DNA of 11,436 nucleotides from a virus: UHGV virus genome UHGV-1406243, one strand, 5' to 3'. Made by a program: the position numbers and the translations under genes. Below, one piece after another: positions 185-9,803 of this stretch; within the stretch, counting starts at the first letter, position 1, and each line of letters begins with the position of its first letter. The notes beneath the pieces are model-generated. The model did no database searches. It had not been told where the DNA came from and saw nothing but the letters and a program-made list of their open reading frames with translations.

Positions 185-1399
185 GTGAGCAGAGCAATGA
201 ACAAACTGAGCGATACCTTGCTAAGGAAACTTCATGGTAAGCCAGCGGAGAAAAACACGTTTTATAGTGATGGCGGAAACCTGAGCGTGAAATATTTAAC
301 ATCAGGGAAATTGACCTGGTATTTCACATACAGGGCCGGAACGGGAAGGGAGACACGACCCGAACGCATTAAGCTGGGAAGTTATCCTGATCTGAGCCTG
401 AAAGCAGCCAGGGAAAAAGCCGCACAGTGTCGCACATGGCTGGCTGAGGGGAAAAATCCACGTCATGAGATGAATTACACCGTACAGGAAGCGTTAAAGC
501 CCGTAACGGTTGGCGATGCGCTCACCTACTGGCTTGAGTATTACGTAAAGGAAAACCGCGTGGATTATATCGCCCTGAAAAGGCGACTTAATAATCACGT
601 AATACAGCAGATTGGTGCTATGCCGCTGGATAAATGCGAGCTACGGCACTGGCTGGCCTGTTTTGACCAGGTGGTAAAGCGAACGCCTGTTACTGCCGGA
701 TTCGTGCTACAGGCGTGCAAACAGGCGCTTAAGTTCTGCCGTAGGCGGCGCTATGCAATCAGCAACGTTCTGGACGATCTGAACGTTGCGGACGTTGGGA
801 AAAAACCGGATATAAGCGAACGTGTCTTAAGTAACAAAGAACTTGGCGAATTATTGCAGGCACTGGACAAAAAAATATTCTCCCCTTACTACGTCGCGTT
901 AATCCGCCTCCTGATTGTCTTCGGAGCCAGAACGGTAGAACTGAGGTTATCGGAGATCGGGGAGTGGGATTTTACGGAAATGCTATGGACCGTTCCGAAG
1001 GAGCACAGCAAAACGAAGGTCGCAATATTCCGGCCCATACCGGAAGCGATCCTGCCGTTCGTCACGCAGCTGGTGGAGCAGAACAGGCACACGGGCTTAT
1101 TGCTGGGGGAAGTGAAACAGGAGGCCAGCGTATCGCAGTATGGAAGATTAGCGCACAGGAGGCTTAATCACCCTCACTGGTCACTGCATGACATCCGGCG
1201 CACCTTTACAACCATGCTGAACGATTTAGGCGTTGATCCGCATGTCGTGGAGCAGCTTACAGGCCACCAGATGCCAGGAATGCAGCGAGTTTATAATCAT
1301 TCCCGTTATCTGTTTTCAGTATGCGCATCTAGCGAATCACTCTTTAAAGAGCGAGAAAAAAGGCATGGAACAATATTTTATGCCTTTGTATTAACATGA
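185..1399 (+). CDS. int: Tyrosine recombinase / site-specific integrase, P4-type
   Basis: 404-aa ORF. The N-terminus (LRKLHGKPAEKNTFYSDGGNLSVKY..LGSYPDLSLKAAREKA) matches the P4-integrase arm-binding domain pattern. The C-terminus carries HDIRRTF..LGH..VYNHSRY catalytic-type motifs (His-x-x-Arg and terminal Tyr). GTG start at 185 is 5 nt after GAGGGGG; an alternative ATG lies at 197. Confidence 0.9.
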   Translation: MSRAMNKLSDTLLRKLHGKPAEKNTFYSDGGNLSVKYLTSGKLTWYFTYRAGTGRETRPERIKLGSYPDLSLKAAREKAAQCRTWLAEGKNPRHEMNYTVQEALKPVTVGDALTYWLEYYVKENRVDYIALKRRLNNHVIQQIGAMPLDKCELRHWLACFDQVVKRTPVTAGFVLQACKQALKFCRRRRYAISNVLDDLNVADVGKKPDISERVLSNKELGELLQALDKKIFSPYYVALIRLLIVFGARTVELRLSEIGEWDFTEMLWTVPKEHSKTKVAIFRPIPEAILPFVTQLVEQNRHTGLLLGEVKQEASVSQYGRLAHRRLNHPHWSLHDIRRTFTTMLNDLGVDPHVVEQLTGHQMPGMQRVYNHSRYLFSVCASSESLFKEREKRHGTIFYAFVLT

Positions 1400-2226: not shown

Positions 2227-2406
2227 TTACTCTGGTTCTTTGGCCTTGCGCCGCTGGCGATATTCAACTTCTCGTTTTAATGCCGCAGTAACAAATTGCC
2301 CCGTACTTTCGCCAGGCATTTTTACCGCCTCAACATTGTTCATAACTTCATGCGGAACCCTTGCCGCAACGGTTTGTGATTTTGCGTTTACCGCTTTTGT
2401 CGCCAT
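2227..2406 (-). CDS. Ribbon-helix-helix (Arc/CopG/MetJ-like) transcriptional repressor, 59 aa; absent from the ORF track (below its length cutoff)
   Basis: Hand translation of the minus strand gives MATKAVNAKSQTVAARVPHEVMNNVEAVKMPGESTGQFVTAALKREVEYRQRRKAKEPE. It has an N-terminal beta-strand (VAARVP), helix A, a G-x-S/T turn (PGESTGQ) and helix B. GAGGGG lies 8-9 nt upstream of the ATG. The gene is divergent from the plus-strand operon, with operator palindromes in between. Confidence 0.6.
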   Translation of the reverse strand: MATKAVNAKSQTVAARVPHEVMNNVEAVKMPGESTGQFVTAALKREVEYRQRRKAKEPE

Positions 2407-2456
2407 GTGGTGTACCCCTCATAAAAAACAAATGCAGTATGCAGGAAAAAAAATAA

Positions 2457-2508
2457 GTGTTCAACACTTGACGTGTTTAACACCTGGGTTTAAATTGGTG
2501 TTCAACAC
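2457..2508. promoter_or_regulatory. Divergent promoter/operator region: three copies of the near-palindrome GTGTT(C/T)AACAC (2457..2467, 2473..2483, 2498..2508), overlapping a TTGACG -35 (2468..2473) and TAAATT -10 (2491..2496) for the rightward operon
   Basis: Repeats are read directly. The arms GTGTT/AACAC are inverted repeats, typical of dimeric repressor operators. The position between the divergent RHH gene and the rightward operon fits a genetic switch. Confidence 0.55.
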
Positions 2509-2605
2509 CTTGTTGGCGCAAGGTGCAGAAACGACGAAACCCGGCAGTGCGCTAACACTAACCGGGCTTCTAACCACCAACGATAGCGAAAGTATCGAGG
2601 TAGCT

Positions 2606-2806
2606 ATGAGAAATCATACCACACACCCGCAAGGGCGGGACTCGCACAACCTGAATAAATACATCTGGCGTTTTATCGCCCTGAGCACGGCACAACCGCG
2701 CGTGATTACCATTGAGGCCACCAGCGAACAGGAAGCACGCCAGCAATCTCCGGCTGGCTGCGTGATGGTATTTGCTGCCCGTATTCGTCAGGGGGTAGGC
2801 TTATGA
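2606..2806 (+). CDS. Small protein (66 aa), tentatively Icd-like host cell division inhibitor family; first gene of the rightward operon
   Basis: ATG 2606 follows GAGG by 5 nt. Product: MRNHTTHPQGRDSHNLNKYIWRFIALSTAQPRVITIEATSEQEARQQSPAGCVMVFAARIRQGVGL. The family assignment is from memory of similar satellite and cryptic-prophage proteins and is uncertain. The stop overlaps the next start (ATGA). Confidence 0.6.
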   Translation: MRNHTTHPQGRDSHNLNKYIWRFIALSTAQPRVITIEATSEQEARQQSPAGCVMVFAARIRQGVGL

Positions 2807-3033
2807 GCCAGGAAATCACACTACAACAGGCAGCAGAACGCGCCCACCAAATCGAAGTTATTTGCGCACTGGCAGAGGATTACCCTGGCATGATGACCGA
2901 CAGCGAATCAGGGGCAATCATCGGCTTACTTAAACGCCTTAGCGGTGAGGTCTGCGTATTCCTGAGCGATGAACAGGAAAGAAGAACGCTTATTTCTAAC
3001 GAAAAAAAATGCGGAGGGGTACATGTGCAATAA
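2803..3033 (+). CDS. Hypothetical protein (76 aa)
   Basis: ATGA overlap with the upstream gene (translational coupling); same strand within a compact operon. Confidence 0.6.
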   Translation: MSQEITLQQAAERAHQIEVICALAEDYPGMMTDSESGAIIGLLKRLSGEVCVFLSDEQERRTLISNEKKCGGVHVQ

Positions 3034-3244
3034 AACCACACCGGACGCAGCCGCCGCCGCGCTCACTACGCTGATGCACGCGCTTATTGATATTTCTGTT
3101 ATTGCTGACAGGGCGCATAAACACGCAGCCAGAGAATCAGAATGCATCTTCCATTTAGCATTTGTGCAGCTAAAAGCCGATCAGGCACTGGATAAGGCCG
3201 GAAAAATTATCATGGCTGATGTGCAGGAGGTGCACCATGCATAA
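3023..3244 (+). CDS. Hypothetical protein (73 aa)
   Basis: ATG 3023 is preceded by GGAGGGG (3012..3018). In frame with the 91-aa ORF in the track, whose upstream extension lacks an RBS. Overlaps neighbours on both sides. Confidence 0.55.
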   Translation: MCNKTTPDAAAAALTTLMHALIDISVIADRAHKHAARESECIFHLAFVQLKADQALDKAGKIIMADVQEVHHA

Positions 3245-3602
3245 TCTGTCAATTTCTGACCTTAACAGCATTCAGTTTGATGAGAAATTTACCGGGCAGT
3301 TGCTGGTCAATGTGGAGAACGGGCGCATAGTGCGTAATTATCACCTGCCGGATGGTGCAATTGCCGGAAGCGTTGAAGCATTGCTGGAACTGGCGGAACG
3401 TGCGCGACTGATTAAGCCGTCAACGAGCCATCACGATGATGATCTGCATTTTACCGGATGTATGGTGAGTCACTACGAAAACGGCGTCGAGGTATCCTGT
3501 GAACGGCTGCGTGATGATTGCTGTTTCGGCACACTGCCGGAATTTATCGAGTTGCTGACCAGTTGCGGTTATCAGGTCATTCAGGGGGGTAAACATGCGT
3601 GA
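3237..3602 (+). CDS. Hypothetical protein (121 aa)
   Basis: ATG 3237 is preceded by AGGAGG (3225..3230). The 127-aa ORF start at 3219 lacks an RBS. Confidence 0.65.
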   Translation: MHNLSISDLNSIQFDEKFTGQLLVNVENGRIVRNYHLPDGAIAGSVEALLELAERARLIKPSTSHHDDDLHFTGCMVSHYENGVEVSCERLRDDCCFGTLPEFIELLTSCGYQVIQGGKHA

Positions 3603-3861
3603 TGATCGTTTTAATTCCCTGAAACAGGAATGTGATATTTACCACGAAACAATAGACCGCGCATTTCTTGCACTTTCTCACAGTGAAAACATGCTGGAAA
3701 TATTGCGCATATGGCTTGAAACACTTGGCGACAATGAACGCGACAAACAAAAATCAAGAATTGCCACGGCATTAATAACGCTTCTTGAGCCTGTAATAAT
3801 GGAACTGCAAGAAATAGATCTATTGCACGACAGATATAAAGAACAGCACACCGGAGAATAA
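3595..3861 (+). CDS. Hypothetical protein (88 aa)
   Basis: ATG 3595 is preceded by GGGGGG; 8-nt overlap with the upstream gene. Confidence 0.65.
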   Translation: MRDDRFNSLKQECDIYHETIDRAFLALSHSENMLEILRIWLETLGDNERDKQKSRIATALITLLEPVIMELQEIDLLHDRYKEQHTGE

Positions 3862-3866
3862 AAATA

Positions 3867-4166
3867 ATGAAACTTAAATATTCTGGCTTAACTGCCAGTG
3901 GCAACACTCACCCTAAATTTACGCGCGGCGATATTTACCGCGACCAGTACGGCGGCACGGTAATGATTAAGGGCGTGGAAGAACGGCGCGTAACCTACCG
4001 CCGTGAAGGTTACGAATATGATTGCGTGATGCCTGTTTATCAGTTCCGGCGTGATTTTTCTCTGGTACAGACCGCGCCGCATAACGTGTCCACCAGCAAC
4101 GCCAGGGCACGGGCAAACATCCAGAAGCTGAAAACCATGATTAACGGATTCAGGGGTAAAAAATGA
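3867..4166 (+). CDS. Hypothetical protein (99 aa)
   Basis: ATG 3867 is preceded by GGAG. Its stop overlaps the primase start (ATGA at 4163..4166). Confidence 0.7.
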   Translation: MKLKYSGLTASGNTHPKFTRGDIYRDQYGGTVMIKGVEERRVTYRREGYEYDCVMPVYQFRRDFSLVQTAPHNVSTSNARARANIQKLKTMINGFRGKK

Positions 4167-5917
4167 AACTGGCACCGAACGTAAAACAGCAGTCACGCGG
4201 CATAAAACACAAAGAAACAGAAGTCATTATTTTTGCGGGTAGTGATGCCTGGTCACACGCAAAACAATGGCAGGAACATGACGCGCGTATGGCCGGAGAT
4301 AATGAGCCTCCTGTGTGGCTTGGGGAGCAGCAGTTATCCGAACTGGATAAGCTGCAAATTGTGCCGGAAGGCAGAAAATCCGTGCGCATATTCAGGGCCG
4401 GATATCTTGCGCCAGTAATGATAAAGGCGATTGGTCAGAAGCTGGCGGCGGCAGGCGTACAGGATGCAAATTTTTACCCTGATGGTATGCACGGTCAGAA
4501 GGTGGAGAACTGGCGCGAATATCTGGCCCGTGAGCGCCAGAATCTTTCTGATGGTCTGGTCATTGAGCTTCCGGTAAAGCAAAAGGCGCAACTTTCGCAG
4601 ATGGCGGACAGTGAGCGCGCGCAGCTGCTTGCCGATCGCTTTGATGGCGTTTGCGTACATCCTGAAAGTGAAATCGTTCACGTATGGCGCGGCGGGGTAT
4701 GGTGTCCGGTCAGCACAATGGAACTTAGCCGCGAAATGGTGGCGATCTATTCAGAGCACAGGGCCACTTTCAGCAAGCGCGTAATCAATAACGCCGTGGA
4801 AGCGTTAAAAGTTATTGCCGAACCAATGGGCGAGCCGTCCGGCGATTTGTTGCCGTTCGCCAATGGTGCGCTTGACCTGAAAACGGGGGAATTTTCCCCG
4901 CACACGCCGGAGAACTGGATCACCACGCACAACGGCATTGAGTACACGCCACCAGCACCAGGGGAGAACATCCGCGATAACGCGCCAAACTTTCATAAAT
5001 GGCTTGAGCACGCAGCCGGAAAAGACCCGCGCAAGATGATGCGTATATGTGCCGCGCTGTACATGATTATGGCGAACCGGTACGACTGGCAGATGTTTAT
5101 TGAGGCCACCGGAGACGGCGGGAGCGGTAAAAGTACATTCACACACATAGCCAGCCTTCTGGCAGGGAAACAGAACACGGTAAGCGCTGAAATGACATCG
5201 CTTGATGATGCTGGTGGACGTGCGCAGGTTGTCGGGAGTCGTCTTATCGTCCTGGCTGACCAGCCGAAATATACAGGCGAAGGAACGGGCATCAAGAAAA
5301 TCACGGGCGGTGACCCCGTGGAAATTAACCCGAAATACGAAAAGCGTTTCACGGCGGTAATCAGGGCGGTGGTGCTGGCGACCAACAATAACCCGATGAT
5401 ATTCACCGAACGGGCCGGAGGTGTGGCACGTCGTCGCGTGATTTTCCGTTTCGACAATATCGTCAGTGAGGCCGAAAAAGACAGGGAGCTACCGGAAAAG
5501 ATCGCGGCTGAAATCCCTGTCATTATCCGCCGATTGCTGGCGAACTTTACCGACCCTGAGAAGGCACGGGCTTTACTACTGGAACAGCGTGACGGTGATG
5601 AAGCTCTGGCAATAAAGCAACAGACGGATCCGGTTATTGAGTTTTGCCAGTTCCTGAATTTTCTGGAGGAAGCACGCGGCCTGATGATGGGCGGCGGTGG
5701 CGATTCAGTGAAGTACACGACCAGAAACAGCCTTTACCGCGTCTATCTGGCGTTTATGGCGTACGCAGGCAGGAGCAAACCGCTAAACGTAAATGACTTT
5801 GGCAAGGCTATGAAGCCAGCCGCGAAAGTTTACGGACATGAATATATTACGCGGAAAGTTAAGGGAGTAACGCAGACTAACGCAATAACAACAGACGAGT
5901 GCGACGCGTTTTTATAA
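4163..5917 (+). CDS. Replication initiator: P4 alpha-like primase/helicase (D5-type SF3 NTPase domain)
   Basis: 584-aa ORF. Walker A GDGGSGKST and Walker B-like RLIVLADQ are read directly in the C-terminal half. Gene size and the iteron array immediately downstream match satellite Pri-Rep / P4 alpha proteins. The N-terminal primase domain was not confirmed motif by motif. Confidence 0.85.
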   Translation: MKLAPNVKQQSRGIKHKETEVIIFAGSDAWSHAKQWQEHDARMAGDNEPPVWLGEQQLSELDKLQIVPEGRKSVRIFRAGYLAPVMIKAIGQKLAAAGVQDANFYPDGMHGQKVENWREYLARERQNLSDGLVIELPVKQKAQLSQMADSERAQLLADRFDGVCVHPESEIVHVWRGGVWCPVSTMELSREMVAIYSEHRATFSKRVINNAVEALKVIAEPMGEPSGDLLPFANGALDLKTGEFSPHTPENWITTHNGIEYTPPAPGENIRDNAPNFHKWLEHAAGKDPRKMMRICAALYMIMANRYDWQMFIEATGDGGSGKSTFTHIASLLAGKQNTVSAEMTSLDDAGGRAQVVGSRLIVLADQPKYTGEGTGIKKITGGDPVEINPKYEKRFTAVIRAVVLATNNNPMIFTERAGGVARRRVIFRFDNIVSEAEKDRELPEKIAAEIPVIIRRLLANFTDPEKARALLLEQRDGDEALAIKQQTDPVIEFCQFLNFLEEARGLMMGGGGDSVKYTTRNSLYRVYLAFMAYAGRSKPLNVNDFGKAMKPAAKVYGHEYITRKVKGVTQTNAITTDECDAFL

Positions 5918-5929
5918 TTTTTTGTAATT

Positions 5930-6160
5930 GCTGTCTACCCTGTCTACCTGAGTAAAGAAAAATACATTTAATTCAGTGCATTAAGTTAGGTAGATAGCCT
6001 TTTTTTACTGTCTACCCACTATCTACCCTCTCTACCTGATTTTACCTGAATCAGACAGGGAGGTAGACACGGGGTAGATAGTGGATAAAAGCACTCTACC
6101 CCGCTGAAAGCCGCGCCATTACTGGTATGAGGGCCACTAAGGTAGATAAGGTAGACAAGG
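5930..6160. other. Putative origin of replication: iteron array of YCTACC / GGTAGAY motifs with dyad organisation; duplicated at 6379..6609
   Basis: At least 11 copies of the core (T/C)CTACC. Direct copies lie at 5933..6048 (TGTCTACCCTGTCTACCTG, TGTCTACCC, ATCTACCC, TCTACCTG) and inverted copies at 6061..6160 (GGTAGACAC, GGTAGATAG, GGTAGATAAGGTAGACAAGG), centred near 6055. It sits directly downstream of the primase gene. Confidence 0.55.
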
Positions 6161-6205
6161 GGAGGCACAACTCAAAACTTTTTAAACGAGGGGGTAAAAA
6201 TAAAT

Positions 6206-6262
6206 ATGCACACTTCAGGGAAATTTAATAAATCACTCAAAATGACTTTGGCAAGGCTATGA
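6206..6262 (+). pseudogene. Truncated duplicate of the start of the 92-aa gene (18 codons, then stop), created by the tandem duplication
   Basis: Same RBS and first 12 codons (MHTSGKFNKSLK) as the gene at 6655; the reading frame then runs into the duplicated primase 3' fragment and stops. Confidence 0.4.
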
Positions 6263-6654
6263 AGCCAGCCGCGAAAGTTTACGGACATGAATATATTACG
6301 CGGAAAGTTAAGGGAGTAACGCAGACTAACGCAATAACAACAGACGAGTGCGACGCGTTTTTATAATTTTTTGTAATTGCTGTCTACCCTGTCTACCTGA
6401 GTAAAGAAAAATACATTTAATTCAGTGCATTAAGTTAGGTAGATAGCCTTTTTTTACTGTCTACCCACTATCTACCCTCTCTACCTGATTTTACCTGAAT
6501 CAGACAGGGAGGTAGACACGGGGTAGATAGTGGATAAAAGCACTCTACCCCGCTGAAAGCCGCGCCATTACTGGTATGAGGGCCACTAAGGTAGATAAGG
6601 TAGACAAGGGGAGGCACAACTCAAAACTTTTTAAACGAGGGGGTAAAAATAAAT

Positions 6655-6933
6655 ATGCACACTTCAGGGAAATTTAATAAATCACTCAAAAAACGCAGAG
6701 ACAGAACAGAACCGAAATATCGCGCGTTAGACATGACAGAGCACGCTTTAAAGGTGGCAATCAGAACGATAGACCGCCACGCGGGGGAAGGATACGCGAA
6801 AGCACATCCCGAACTGATAAGCGCATTCATGACCACGACGGCGGCAAATTTTGCCACGCTGACAGAGCGGGAGATTGCCGAAGCGGAACAGGTAACAACC
6901 ATCAACGTTAAAACCGGAGAGGTGGAATCATGA
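6655..6933 (+). CDS. Hypothetical protein (92 aa)
   Basis: Strong RBS GAGGGGGT upstream; stop overlaps the ssb start (ATGA). Confidence 0.65.
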   Translation: MHTSGKFNKSLKKRRDRTEPKYRALDMTEHALKVAIRTIDRHAGEGYAKAHPELISAFMTTTAANFATLTEREIAEAEQVTTINVKTGEVES

Positions 6934-7470: not shown

Positions 7471-7565
7471 CATCATCATGAGCGTAATTTATTGTTTTTA
7501 ATTGTTTTGATGCAAAAAAGATGATGGTTGTGGTTAATTTTCGTTCGACATCTTTGCAGGCAGAT

Positions 7566-7606
7566 AAAAAAGCCCGATAAGGTCAGAGGTGGCTTATCGG
7601 GCTTTT
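7566..7606. terminator. Bidirectional rho-independent terminator (10-bp perfect stem GCCCGATAAG / CTTATCGGGC, A-run upstream, T-run downstream)
   Basis: Read directly: AAAAAAGCCCGATAAGgtcagaggtggCTTATCGGGCTTTTG. Confidence 0.6.
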
Positions 7607-7683
7607 GCATATGAGGCTTTTTGGTGCACTGACACACATGAGCGGGATCATCATTTCATAATTTGCAACACAACTCAATATCA

Positions 7684-7974: not shown

Positions 7975-9029
7975 TGGCAGGCAAAGCAACGGCACTTAAC
8001 ACTAACCAGCTTTTCATGTACCTGAATCGCGGGGATATTGCGGATTTTAAATTCAGCCCTCTGTTTACTACGCTGTTTTTCCCGAACGTGGCGACATTCA
8101 GCACGCAAAACATCATGCTGGATACCCTGGACATTGAAGAAGTCACCATGTCGGCGTTTTGTTCGCCTATGGTGGGTAGCCAGGTTCAGCGCGATAAAGG
8201 GTACGAAACCAGCACGATTAAACCTGGCTACATGAAGCCAAAGCACGAAATCGATCCAACGAAAACCATCATGCGCATGGCTGGAGAAGATCCGGCACAG
8301 CTTAACGACCCTACCTATCGCCGTATGCGCCTGATTACTGGCAATATGCGCCGCCAGATAAACGCCATAAAAGCGCGCGTGGAATGGCTGGCGGTAAATG
8401 CGGTAACGACCGGAAAAAACATCATTGAGGGCGAAGGCATAGAGCGCTATGAAATCGACTGGAAGATACCGGAAAAAAACATCATAGAGCAGGCCGACGG
8501 GAAAAAATGGTCAGCGCAGGACAAAGAAACCCACGATCCAATCTATGATATCGAACTATACGCCGATCAGGCTGGTTGCCCCGCAAACGTCATGATTATG
8601 GGCGCTGAGGTATGGCGAACGTTACGCAGCTTTAAAAAATTCCGTGAGCTGTACGATCTTTCCCGTGGTTCAGAATCCGCCGCCGAACTGGCCTGTAAAA
8701 ACCTGGGCGAAGTGGTGAGCTTTAAAGGCTATCTTGGTGATCTGGCCCTTATCGTCTATTCCGGCAAATACACTGACAGCGATGGTACCGAAAAATATTT
8801 CCTTGAGCCTGATTTGCTGGTCCTAGGTAACACCAACAATAAAGGGCTGGTGGCCTATGGTGCGATAATGGATCAGGAAGCGGTAAGAACGGGCGCAACA
8901 CAAAACATGTTTTACCCGAAAAACTGGATTGAGGACGGCGATCCGGCGATTGAGTACGTGCAGACACACAGTGCACCGCAGCCGGTACCGGCAGATATTC
9001 GCAAATTTGTTACCGTCAAAATTGGTTAA
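7974..9029 (+). CDS. Major capsid protein, phage lambda gpE family
   Basis: Multiple collinear blocks match lambda gpE as I recall it: FKFSPLFTTLFF vs FKFDPLFLRLFF; PGYMKPKHEIDP vs PGYVKPKHEVNP; EDPAQLNDPTYRRMR vs EDPQNLADPAYRRRR; RGSESAAELACKNLGEVVSFKGYLGDLALIVYSGKY vs RGSNSELETAVKDLGKAVSYKGMYGDVAIVVYSGQY; YPKNWIEDGDPAIEY..SAP vs YPKNWVTTGDPAREF..SAP. Length 351 aa vs 341 aa. Confidence 0.92.
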   Translation: MAGKATALNTNQLFMYLNRGDIADFKFSPLFTTLFFPNVATFSTQNIMLDTLDIEEVTMSAFCSPMVGSQVQRDKGYETSTIKPGYMKPKHEIDPTKTIMRMAGEDPAQLNDPTYRRMRLITGNMRRQINAIKARVEWLAVNAVTTGKNIIEGEGIERYEIDWKIPEKNIIEQADGKKWSAQDKETHDPIYDIELYADQAGCPANVMIMGAEVWRTLRSFKKFRELYDLSRGSESAAELACKNLGEVVSFKGYLGDLALIVYSGKYTDSDGTEKYFLEPDLLVLGNTNNKGLVAYGAIMDQEAVRTGATQNMFYPKNWIEDGDPAIEYVQTHSAPQPVPADIRKFVTVKIG

Positions 9030-9041
9030 CGGGGGGATTCT

Positions 9042-9377
9042 ATGGACACTCCATACATTGAGTTATTTGCAGGCAGTCAGCGGGTCGCCACGACGCTGGT
9101 ACATTTTGCCGCTGATGCTGGCGTTATTCAGGAATTTACCCCGCTGATGCTGGCAGACAATGGCGAGTTTAAGCCGTGGGATGGTCAGGAATCTGGCAAG
9201 GCTGTTTATCTGACCTCGTACCCTGTGGACACGTCAAAGCAGAAATCAGCACAGTGTTACAAGACGGGGATTTTCAATATTGCCGCCGTTAACTGGCCTG
9301 AGAGCGTCGACACCGATGCGAAAAAATGCGCCGCCTTTGCGGGTTCCGGCGTATCCGTTCAGCCGCTGGCCCGATAA
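9042..9377 (+). CDS. Head decoration protein, phage lambda gpD family
   Basis: 111 aa vs 110 aa for lambda D. Blocks TPLMLADNGEFKPWDG vs TPLMLDTSSRKLVAWDG and YKTGIFNIAAVNWPESVDTDAKKCAAFAGSGVSVQ vs [44 protein letters not shown] upstream. Confidence 0.88.
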   Translation: MDTPYIELFAGSQRVATTLVHFAADAGVIQEFTPLMLADNGEFKPWDGQESGKAVYLTSYPVDTSKQKSAQCYKTGIFNIAAVNWPESVDTDAKKCAAFAGSGVSVQPLAR

Positions 9378-9389
9378 GCAGGGGGAACG

Positions 9390-9803
9390 ATGGCAACGAA
9401 TGAAAGCGTCATGACGCTACCGCTGGCGAGTAAATTTAAAGCCGAAGCGCGGGCAATGGCTGACAGAGGTTTATCAACCTACGAGGCCGTATATCAACTC
9501 AACAAACTGGAAGAGCAGGACAAGCCGCGCGCTGATGCGATTATGGCGCTTCATGAACATAACGACTATCAGCCGCTGTTACGTGCAATGGCAAACGTGC
9601 CATGTATTAGCGTCGATAATGCTCGTGAAATCCTGAACATGACCATAGAGCAGGAGCGCCCAAAGGTTGCGCCGGAGCTTACCGCAGCCTTTGAAAACTT
9701 TATGGACATGCACAGCCCGAAAGCCGTATCACCCGGCATGGCATACGACGGCAGAAACCAGGGCGATGAAGGCGACGTCGATCGCATACTGAAAACCATC
9801 TGA
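9390..9803 (+). CDS. Hypothetical protein (137 aa), last gene of the capsid module
   Basis: RBS GGGGG upstream; followed by a terminator. No recognisable motif by eye. Confidence 0.7.
   Translation: MATNESVMTLPLASKFKAEARAMADRGLSTYEAVYQLNKLEEQDKPRADAIMALHEHNDYQPLLRAMANVPCISVDNAREILNMTIEQERPKVAPELTAAFENFMDMHSPKAVSPGMAYDGRNQGDEGDVDRILKTI

Follow-up and report, generated by a model that had tools for sequence, protein, structure and literature searches.

The stretch of viral DNA analyzed here (UHGV virus genome UHGV-1406243, 11,436 nucleotides (nt) in length and referred to below as the window) is, judged by its gene content, a phage-inducible chromosomal island (PICI) of Escherichia coli of the EcCICFT073 type, and the six short open reading frames (ORFs) at positions 2606–4166 lie between its regulatory switch and its primase gene. 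We read these ORFs as part of the early operon of the island, gated by a repressor-controlled promoter, a SymR-like antisense RNA and translational coupling, which would deliver an Icd-like protein, a set of accessory factors, the regulator RgdR and the replicase; we put the probability of this reading as a whole at about three in four. The early operon of EcCICFT073-type PICIs is a known kind of block, and both of its core genes (Icd-like and RgdR) have already been named. New, as far as we have checked, are the SymR-like antisense gate and its behavior as a portable cassette, the arrangement of the accessory genes as a menu in fixed order, and the prediction of a KOW/Tudor-like fold for RgdR.

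We assign the island to the EcCICFT073 type because its int, alpA, primase, SSB, capsid and decoration genes stand in the arrangement described for EcCICFT073 (PMC6092414). The ORF map, the Pfam matches, a twin island in RefSeq and the repeats at the replication origin (ori) together give the outline of a PICI: int and alpA lie at one end, the operon that follows closes with pri-rep, an ori with repeats comes next, lysis and tail genes are lacking, and the size is ~10–15 kb. Downstream (3′) of the primase come the repeat-bearing ori region, the SSB gene, a major-capsid homolog and a head-decoration homolog. The twin is the near-identical island of E. coli EcPF5, which is inserted in tqsA and in which the RefSeq coding sequences are these same six ORFs. 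EcCICFT073 and O-island 51 (OI-51; CP-933C of E. coli O157:H7) share with the window a backbone of int, alpA, a chain of small ORFs ending in rgdR, pri-rep with ori, SSB, and capsid and head-decoration homologs, whereas the set of cassettes in the middle of the chain varies between islands. Compared with its nearest relative, the window has three features of its own: a gene fusion that created ORF5 (5a::5b, described below), a 449-bp duplication at the ori and an altered 3′ end of int. A match to the region 2400–4300 is found in 1821 of 5426 complete E. coli genomes, including enterohemorrhagic (EHEC) O157:H7, uropathogenic E. coli and Nissle 1917; only 125 of the genomes match over at least 80% of this region, which is therefore mosaic.

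The original prediction, made by a model from the letters of the window, had placed at 2606–4166 six small ORFs of 66, 76, 73, 121, 88 and 99 amino acids (aa), each with a ribosome-binding site, most overlapping their neighbors by 4 to 11 nt and translationally coupled, between a regulatory switch and a satellite primase. The coordinates proved exact (Table 1), and the location agrees with the ORF map, with the promoter and palindromes described below and with the D5/P4-type primase that follows. A purine-rich Shine–Dalgarno sequence (SD) lies 4–9 nt upstream of every start: GAGG, GGGGGT, GGAGGGG, AGGAGG, GGGGGG and GGAGAA for ORF1 to ORF6, and AGGGG for the primase. The first four junctions overlap by 4, 11, 8 and 8 nt, ORF5 and ORF6 are separated by a 5-nt gap, and the ORF6 stop overlaps the primase start at 4163 by 4 nt (ATGA), the same tetranucleotide that joins the ORF1 stop to the ORF2 start. 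A blind start-to-stop walk from ORF1 returns exactly the six ORFs, with comparable chains in related loci, and no terminator-like site was found on the plus strand of 2606–4166. The junctions are thus as predicted, and they suggest the coupling that was predicted with them.

The same tight packing recurs in related islands. For comparison we assembled 85 related operons: 74 lie on IMG/VR contigs, and the other 11 are those of the window and of annotated E. coli genomes. A scan of genome contigs with ORF6 had yielded 2 loci, and the related loci were taken instead from a scan of viral contigs for the leader motif that precedes ORF1; the sample is hence biased to islands with that leader, and the family frequencies given below apply to leader-bearing islands. 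The 85 operons contain 188 distinct gene junctions, of which 129 overlap (by 8 nt in 50 cases, 4 nt in 37 and 11 nt in 31) and a further 42 have gaps of at most 10 nt, giving 171 tight junctions in total.

The first gene of the chain had been guessed to be Icd-like, and this guess held. ORF1 scores 69.9 bits against NCBIfam family NF033153 (phage_ICD_like; cut-off 25) over residues 19–62, the Icd protein of phage P1 itself scores 52.6 bits against the same model, and a single BLASTP comparison of ORF1 with P1 Icd gives 35% identity over 43 aa (E = 2e-6). By these sequence matches ORF1 is a true homolog of the P1 cell-division inhibitor Icd, and it is likely to be a division inhibitor and toxic effector itself. 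A tblastn search with ORF1 against the whole phage collection matched a single record and did not reach P1, and a search of the PDB by sequence gave no meaningful match.

The resemblance extends to the setting of the gene. In the annotation of the P1 record, target sites of the C4 antisense RNA precede icd, the icd stop shares 4 nt with the ant1 start, and ant expression requires icd. The P1 immI operon (c4 RNA, icd, ant1/ant2) and the operon of the island are thus alike in having a homologous Icd domain encoded by the first ORF, an icd ribosome-binding site that is the target of an antisense RNA (in the island, a predicted one), and a 4-nt stop/start overlap with the next gene. They differ in that c4 acts in trans and is co-transcribed with, and processed from, the same strand upstream of icd, whereas the island RNA is predicted to be cis-encoded on the opposite strand, and in that P1 has an antirepressor downstream where the island has accessory ORFs and a replicase. 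The possibility that the leader RNA of the island is a relative of c4 was considered and rejected: the Rfam C4 model found no match, and a covariance model of the island RNA matched neither the P1 immI region nor phage Fels-1.

A 340-codon open frame on the plus strand (1784–2806) begins shortly after alpA and continues across the switch into ORF1, antisense to the YlcI/YnfO-family gene and the 62-aa gene behind it. What Silas et al. (bioRxiv 10.1101/2023.04.06.535777) call the “long N-terminal extension” is this frame; part of it is annotated by PGAP as an Icd-like pseudogene, and long “Icd-like” proteins are present in databases. At 1784–2806 the third codon positions of the frames on the two strands coincide, so that substitution periodicity cannot separate the strands. 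We take the 340-codon ORF for a shadow of the genes on the minus strand, since a family match was obtained for the minus-strand product alone.

The original prediction regarded all six ORFs as being of unknown function and offered a family for the first alone. Besides ORF1, this description fails for the last gene. ORF6 matches Pfam DUF4222 (PF13973) at 85.7 bits (gathering score 27) over residues 16–68, carries RGD at residues 20–22, and is 79.8% identical over 99 aa to a DUF4222 protein of O157:H7 PA20, which fits the published values for ECs1581 (RgdR; PMC3378721): 11.70 kDa, an isoelectric point (pI) of 10.09, and residues D10, R20, Q27, K35 and H45. That paper recognizes RgdR orthologs by a full length of 99 aa, more than 77% similarity to ECs1581 and RGD at residues 20–22, and ORF6, which is 80% identical to ECs1581, has all three features; by sequence it is an RgdR/DUF4222 ortholog. 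Like ECs1581 (Flockhart et al., 2012; PMC3378721), it combines a pI of ~10 with a position directly upstream of the island replicase; it differs in having A10 and R45, as do uropathogenic and commensal variants. Across the DUF4222 family only the GD is kept and the arginine of the RGD is not conserved, and DUF4222 genes stand directly before the replicase in recurrent gene orders, whether that replicase is a D5 primase, a RepA helicase or a DUF927 protein.

In EHEC, RgdR acts as a pleiotropic co-regulator of transcription: it activates LEE1 along with type III secretion, represses motility and is a nonspecific DNA binder (PMC3378721). All analyzed E. coli PICIs are reported to encode it (PMC6092414). 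The AlphaFold model of ORF6 has a mean pLDDT (predicted local distance difference test score) of 76, rising to ~90 for the core residues 23–68, and consists of a five-strand barrel with a short helix followed by an amphipathic, basic C-terminal helix at residues 78–96. A search of the PDB by sequence gave no meaningful match; the nearest folds returned by Foldseek for the core are the Spt5 KOW domain (first, with E values of at least 0.013), the C-terminal Tudor domain of UvrD/PcrA and CarD. A KOW/Tudor-like barrel is a common fold, and we hence regard the modeled resemblance as a lead rather than a finding. Several KOW/Tudor-like domains dock on RNA polymerase, which would fit the pleiotropic “co-factor” behavior of RgdR. 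For the island, RgdR probably ties transcription or DNA to replication, or reprograms the host.

Upstream of the chain, a promoter scan finds a sigma-70-like rightward promoter bracketed by three exact copies of an 11-bp palindrome, GTGTTnAACAC. The palindrome has 4 matches in the window where 0.41 are expected, and none of 200 shuffles reaches 4. From this arrangement we presume that the palindromes are operators of a divergently encoded repressor. The candidate, on grounds of position, is the YlcI/YnfO-family protein, whose gene is divergent from the operon and is annotated at the equivalent position in related islands. Other islands (L002, L004, L007 and L010–L012) have different palindromes at the equivalent promoter position and a conserved leader downstream of it; the sequences are GTGTTCAACAC in the window and GGTAATTACC, GGTGGCCACC and others elsewhere. 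By analogy, this variation looks like a set of immunity types such as those of heteroimmune phages.

The ~100-nt leader 3′ of the promoter is conserved even between islands with different promoters, and it is here that we predict an antisense RNA. The minus strand at 2605–2533 matches the full-length Rfam model of SymR (RF01809) at 33.3 bits (E = 0.0035), a score below the Rfam gathering threshold. The predicted RNA would start under the control of an extended −10 box, TGgTATGAT at 2621–2613, that lies within codons 3–6 of ORF1, and it would be complementary to the ORF1 SD (GAGG, 2597–2600) and 5′ untranslated region (UTR). Its layout comprises hairpin 1 (2597–2581), an invariant single-stranded segment GUUGGUGGUUAGA, a terminator hairpin (2570–2536) and a U-rich tail to ~2527.

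The structure is well supported by covariation. In an alignment of 33 distinct leader variants, RNAalifold finds a 13-bp hairpin with compensatory double changes at 10 of its pairs. Together with a 5-bp second hairpin, 98.2% of the cells are paired, compared with 86.1% in shuffles and only 34–52% in slid controls, and double changes occur at 13 of the 18 pairs where 4.2 are expected; none of 500 shuffles reaches any of five measures. In 62 of 69 distinct sequences, 4 nt separate the extended −10 (TGnTATGAT or TATAAT) from the complement of the ORF1 start codon, and third-position entropy is ~0.2 in ORF1 codons 2–20 compared with ~0.6 further on. The leader thus appears to hold a structured minus-strand element with its own promoter-like box and terminator, predicted to be made as a transcript.

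In return, a covariance model built from island sequences only picks up symR as annotated in E. coli K-12 (29.4 bits, E = 2.5e-7), over all 84 positions and on the correct strand. In K-12, SymR begins 7 nt past a TAGAAT box, at a point 3 nt short of the complement of the symE start codon; equal spacing would place the start in the island at A2605. The RNA predicted for the island is like SymR in length, in a 5′ end at the start codon, in hairpin 1, in a single-stranded UUG(G)UG(A/G)UUAG and in a terminator hairpin with a GUGUUnGCGCAC loop; it would, like SymR, be antisense to an SD and 5′ UTR with a promoter within the first codons, and the covariance-model matches of the two are reciprocal. 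They differ in the partner, which is Icd-like in the island instead of SymE, and in context: ORF1 heads a seven-gene operon on a mobile island, whereas symE is a solitary, SOS-induced gene. No RNA is annotated at this position in the RefSeq records of related islands that we examined, a literature search for the RNA motif, or for SymR together with PICIs or Icd, returned nothing relevant, and neither the antisense RNA nor the operators are mentioned in the passages of PMC6092414 and PMC3378721 that we consulted. The “icd” of PMC10111431 is isocitrate dehydrogenase and is not relevant here.

A hairpin in DNA folds on both strands, and the conserved structure might instead work in the plus-strand mRNA, as a 5′ stabilizer, a protein-binding site or an attenuator, with no antisense RNA at all. 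The invariant single-stranded motif of 13 nt would fit such a role, since it is unneeded for antisense pairing in cis, which suggests recognition by a protein or a trans-acting partner; so would the ProQ/FinO-family RNA chaperone that some related islands encode downstream of the ori (at 8068–8585 in L002 and 7882–8412 in L008), which could act on the conserved leader or on the antisense RNA. We nevertheless consider an mRNA element improbable as the whole explanation, since the features of the leader point to the minus strand. The alignment has 63 G·U but 2 A·C pairs when read on the minus strand; on the plus strand those 63 become A·C mismatches, and pairing falls from 98.2% to 87.5% of cells. 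The 10 nt after the hairpin contain on average 4.9 U on the minus strand and 1.0 on the plus strand, and because this U-rich tract follows on the minus strand only, we take the hairpin to be a minus-strand terminator. The conserved extended −10 keeps a fixed distance on the minus strand, synonymous variation over it is suppressed, and the match to K-12 symR is in register and on the RNA’s own strand.

A second alternative accepts the antisense RNA and sees in it and ORF1 a self-contained type I toxin–antitoxin or abortive-infection module like SymE/SymR, with the downstream genes expressed independently. The reciprocal SymR similarity agrees with this, as does the mobility of the leader and its antisense promoter: with or without the first 18 Icd codons, they move as a cassette and stand before unrelated first genes in a number of IMG/VR loci (L018, L028, L089, L098, L022, L045 and others), among them an ORF of 169 aa judged HNH-like by eye, a protein of 214 aa and an Icd variant of ~180 aa that carries an insert. 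Further support comes from strain ECOR61, whose growth is arrested by the phage accessory protein orf24 (Silas et al., bioRxiv 10.1101/2023.04.06.535777). The insertions that suppressed the arrest lay in an Icd-like gene, the likely effector of this phage-triggered response, and in two adjacent hypothetical genes; removal of the Icd-like gene abolished the effect, and reconstitution needed all six linked genes, including the primase (bioRxiv 10.1101/2023.04.06.535777). This last requirement argues against a self-contained module, as do the ATGA overlap of the ORF1 stop with the ORF2 start, a tight junction that is conserved, and the annotation of the homologous P1 icd as needed for expression of ant downstream. 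We hold a self-contained module of this kind to be rather unlikely, if less so than a leader acting in the mRNA alone.

The supplement of the same study gives the ECOR61 genes as 9309–9675, 9131–9317 and 8940–9132 of QOYT01000045.1, that is, the Icd-like gene followed by genes of 186 nt and 192 nt (bioRxiv 10.1101/2023.04.06.535777 supplement). Three islands of our set (L010, L021 and L044) have the order Icd, 61 aa, 63 aa (ORF2 family), 5b-like, RgdR and primase, with sizes that fit ECOR61. The locus is also the single lead to a function for ORF2–5: its 192-nt gene, one of the three hit by suppressor insertions, would correspond to the 63-aa member of the ORF2 family. By this analogy we infer that the “prophage” superinfection-exclusion or programmed-cell-death system of ECOR61 is a PICI operon of the present type, with which it shares six linked genes that include an Icd-like gene and a primase. 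The window differs from ECOR61-type islands in lacking the 61-aa gene and having ORF3 and ORF4 instead, and its ORF2 is only 52–55% identical to the 63-aa genes of L010 and L011, which have the ECOR61-type gene order.

We raise, as a bolder and distinctly tentative proposal, that a portable “gate cassette” is made up of the leader, the antisense promoter and the first 18 codons of the Icd-like gene. It would be a trigger of PICI induction and of phage-provoked arrest resembling a type I toxin–antitoxin system, in which the antisense RNA would silence a toxic first cistron and, by way of translational coupling, the replicase as well, until helper-driven transcription outruns the RNA. K-12 SymE/SymR might then be a domesticated copy of the cassette, and RgdR a KOW/Tudor-type satellite factor that binds RNA polymerase and whose effect on EHEC virulence would be a side effect.

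Clustering of the 85 loci places the gene families in a fixed order: Icd-like, in some a 61-aa family (f14), the ORF2, ORF3 and ORF4 families, 5a, 5b or f11, DUF4222 and the replicase. From this order and from the family counts (Table 1) we define ORF1 and ORF6 as the core of the operon and the four genes between them as conserved but optional cassettes. Every family is under purifying selection, with median ratios of nonsynonymous to synonymous substitution rates (dN/dS) of 0.16–0.43. The original prediction had named a lack of conservation across related islands as grounds for abandoning it; the comparison of gene content found none, with ORF1 and ORF6 near-universal and ORF2–5 recurring in their fixed order. 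Profile comparison with hhalign related the cassette families to one another only through fusions (f13, which is ORF3 with 5a, and f12, which is Icd with an insert) and through the family of the first ORF4 module, and found no hidden paralogy between them. An apparent similarity of 5a and 5b was rejected as an artifact of having the window’s fusion protein as the first row of the alignment.

For the four middle genes the original description as proteins of unknown function stands: ORF2–5 have no Pfam match above threshold, no PADLOC model and no match to a solved structure. Pfam gave nothing above thresholds for any of ORF1–5, and PADLOC-DB no family at E ≤ 0.1 for ORF1–6. Searches of the PDB with the ORF1, ORF4 and ORF6 sequences and with ORF3 and 5b profiles returned only weak armadillo-repeat, DesK and Cenp-K matches, which we judged not meaningful. 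All four, which are small and mostly acidic (pI 4.8–6.3), match PHROG families of unknown function with E values of 1e-28 to 1e-41.

ORF2, which matches phrog_1478 at 2.9e-28, is 41% identical to STM0898.6n of the early-left operon of Salmonella phage Fels-1, whose record note cites similarity to ECs1579 of O157 Sakai; the family is narrow, with 34 clusters at 50% identity among 1.84 billion proteins. ORF3 looks helical to the eye from its sequence, has no relative that we found in the PDB, and forms a 154-aa fusion protein with 5a in OI-51 of O157:H7 and others. ORF4 consists of two modules, A (about residues 1–58) and B (about 59–121). Module A occurs on its own in 66–70-aa proteins (families f18 and f11), one protein (P0173) joins module B to an AntA antirepressor domain, and many variants of ORF4 carry in-frame internal deletions. 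The AlphaFold model of ORF4 has low confidence (pLDDT 55) and is used for secondary structure only, in which each module is predicted to be a β-hairpin plus a helix. ORF5 is a real ORF, as the original prediction had it, but it is not an ancestral gene. It is an in-frame fusion specific to the window, composed of the first 12 codons of a 77-aa gene (5a), one junction codon and a second 77-aa gene (5b) from its codon 3 onward. The fusion was made by a 193-bp deletion without microhomology, its junction was not found in 134 other loci, and the two-gene form (5a followed by 5b) is present in all 12 best of the 902 complete E. coli genomes with a match.

Because the four proteins are small and mostly acidic, lie in an early position, have homologs in phage early regions and include one module that is elsewhere fused to AntA, their sequences suggest that they most likely bind host or helper proteins during takeover. 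Taken further, this could mean that the whole block consists mainly of factors for helper interference, derepression or anti-defense, each directed against a helper or host-defense protein, and that its regulation is incidental; the original prediction had suggested interference or anti-defense roles for some of the ORFs. The position does correspond to the early accessory regions of phages, and ORF2 and ORF4 have the relatives just named in the Fels-1 early-left operon and in the AntA fusion; the menu-like presence and absence of the genes and their mosaicism are typical of arms-race genes, and the ECOR61 locus answers to a phage accessory protein. No PADLOC, Pfam or solved-structure match supports such functions, though, and dN/dS values of 0.16–0.43 indicate purifying and not diversifying selection. 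The known interference function of EcCICFT073, Rpp, is said to be encoded in the packaging module. An interference block agrees with the best explanation for ORF2–5 but leaves ORF1, ORF6 and the antisense RNA unexplained, and as an account of the whole block we give it a minority chance, if a substantial one.

It is also conceivable that ORF2–5 are decaying or spurious frames without function, given their frequent fusions, in-frame deletions and absences, their lack of recognizable domains, and the fact that the window’s ORF5 is itself a deletion product. This we consider very improbable: dN/dS is well below 1 in every family, the SDs, overlaps and gene order are conserved, the deletions keep the reading frame, and the PHROG matches have E values of 1e-28 to 1e-41.

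Our preferred reading, an early operon gated at several levels, can be put as a sequence of steps. ORF1–6 and the primase would form a single rightward operon transcribed from the promoter at 2468–2496. In the resting island the YlcI/YnfO-family protein, bound to the three palindromes, would hold this promoter off, and any transcript that escaped would be met by the ~78-nt antisense RNA, which would pair with the ORF1 SD and 5′ UTR and block translation of ORF1. A helper that induces the island, acting via AlpA in the manner of EcCICFT073 or via a phage protein in the manner of ECOR61, may overcome both blocks. Ribosomes would then load at ORF1 and be passed on through the 4–11-nt stop/start overlaps, and this hand-over would therefore make translation of ORF1 the meter for all genes downstream, the replicase included, for which icd and ant of P1 offer a precedent. 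The expected consequences are division arrest or toxicity from the Icd-like protein, production of the accessory proteins and RgdR, and replication of the island. The left operon of satellite phage P4 (kil, CI RNA, eta, epsilon, alpha) likewise strings together small early genes, a lethal one among them, with a primase at its end, and P4 immunity acts through a small RNA on the leader, as proposed here; but the P4 CI RNA comes from the same strand and causes transcription termination. We know of no sequence similarity to P4 genes except in the class of the primase.

Several points weigh against this reading. Every regulatory step proposed for this island is deduced from the DNA. Each downstream ORF has an SD of its own, and coupling may for this reason be partial. 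The antisense promoter has no recognizable −35 element, and the SymR match reaches 33.3 bits where Rfam gathers at 61. The demonstrated master regulator of EcCICFT073 is the activator AlpA and not a repressor. ORF2–5 are missing from many islands and are often fused or internally deleted, so they cannot be essential to the satellite life cycle. Finally, the link to ECOR61 is drawn from gene sizes, order and annotation rather than from sequence alignment.

Operons of this type hold a virulence co-regulator (RgdR) and a likely toxic effector (the Icd-like protein), and about one in three complete E. coli genomes carries at least parts of such an operon. Should the antisense gate and the coupling prove real, they would explain how satellites keep a lethal gene and a replicase silent yet quickly inducible, and why growth arrest can be set off from such a locus by a phage accessory protein. 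For RgdR, whose mechanism has been open since 2012, there is now a predicted fold class. Of narrower value is the definition of ORF2–5 as conserved accessory genes in a fixed-order menu, which makes them good targets for helper-interaction screens.

Table 1. Features of the island around the six-ORF chain, with positions in the window, and recurrence and selection of the gene families in the 85 related operons.
Feature	Position	Strand	Description	Operons with family	Median dN/dS
int	185–1399		Left end of island		
alpA			Pfam PF05930; left end of island, with int		
62-aa ORF	1996–2184	−	Behind YlcI/YnfO-family gene		
YlcI/YnfO-family gene	2227–2406	−	59 aa; NCBIfam NF041551, 59.7 bits (cut-off 30); candidate repressor		
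11-bp palindrome, three exact copies	2457–2467, 2473–2483, 2498–2508		GTGTTnAACAC; bracket early promoter; presumed operators		
Early rightward promoter	−35 TTGACG 2468–2473; −10 TAAATT 2491–2496	+	Sigma-70-like, from promoter scan; 17-nt spacer		
SymR-like cis-antisense RNA (predicted)	~2605 to ~2527	−	~78 nt; start predicted at ~2605–2607; promoter box to 2621		
ORF1	2606–2806	+	66 aa, pI 10.7; first gene of operon; Icd-like	68/85, as first gene	0.32
ORF2	2803–3033	+	76 aa, acidic; phrog_1478/ECs1579 family	13/85	0.16
ORF3	3023–3244	+	73 aa; phrog_5146	38/85	0.43
ORF4	3237–3602	+	121 aa; phrog_340 + phrog_2512	16/85	0.19
ORF5	3595–3861	+	88 aa; 5a::5b fusion		
5a			Family of N-terminal part of ORF5	23/85	0.25
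5b			Family of C-terminal part of ORF5; phrog_2196	49/85	0.36
ORF6	3867–4166	+	99 aa, pI 10.2; RgdR/DUF4222	73/85	0.41
Primase-helicase	4163–5917	+	584 aa, D5/P4-type; Pfam D5_N, DUF5906, Pox_D5; TIGR01613	41/85	0.17

Three further observations concern the parts of the island outside the chain. After the SSB gene, a GC-rich hairpin followed by a U-tract (7549–7617, plus strand) resembles an intrinsic terminator and is a weak match of the island RNA model (9.3 bits). At the left end, the 17 nt at 1312–1329 stand in place of ~258 bp of the EcPF5 island, comprising the last ~33 codons of int and sequence downstream, and because of this replacement the C-terminal tail of the integrase differs after YNHSRYL. 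At the ori, a perfect 449-bp tandem duplication (5791–6239 and 6240–6688) takes in the final 127 nt of the primase gene together with the ori region and its 16-nt inverted repeats (TACCCACTATCTACCC). The EcPF5 island, otherwise 99.96% identical, lacks this duplication, which could change origin dosage or be a recent or an assembly event.

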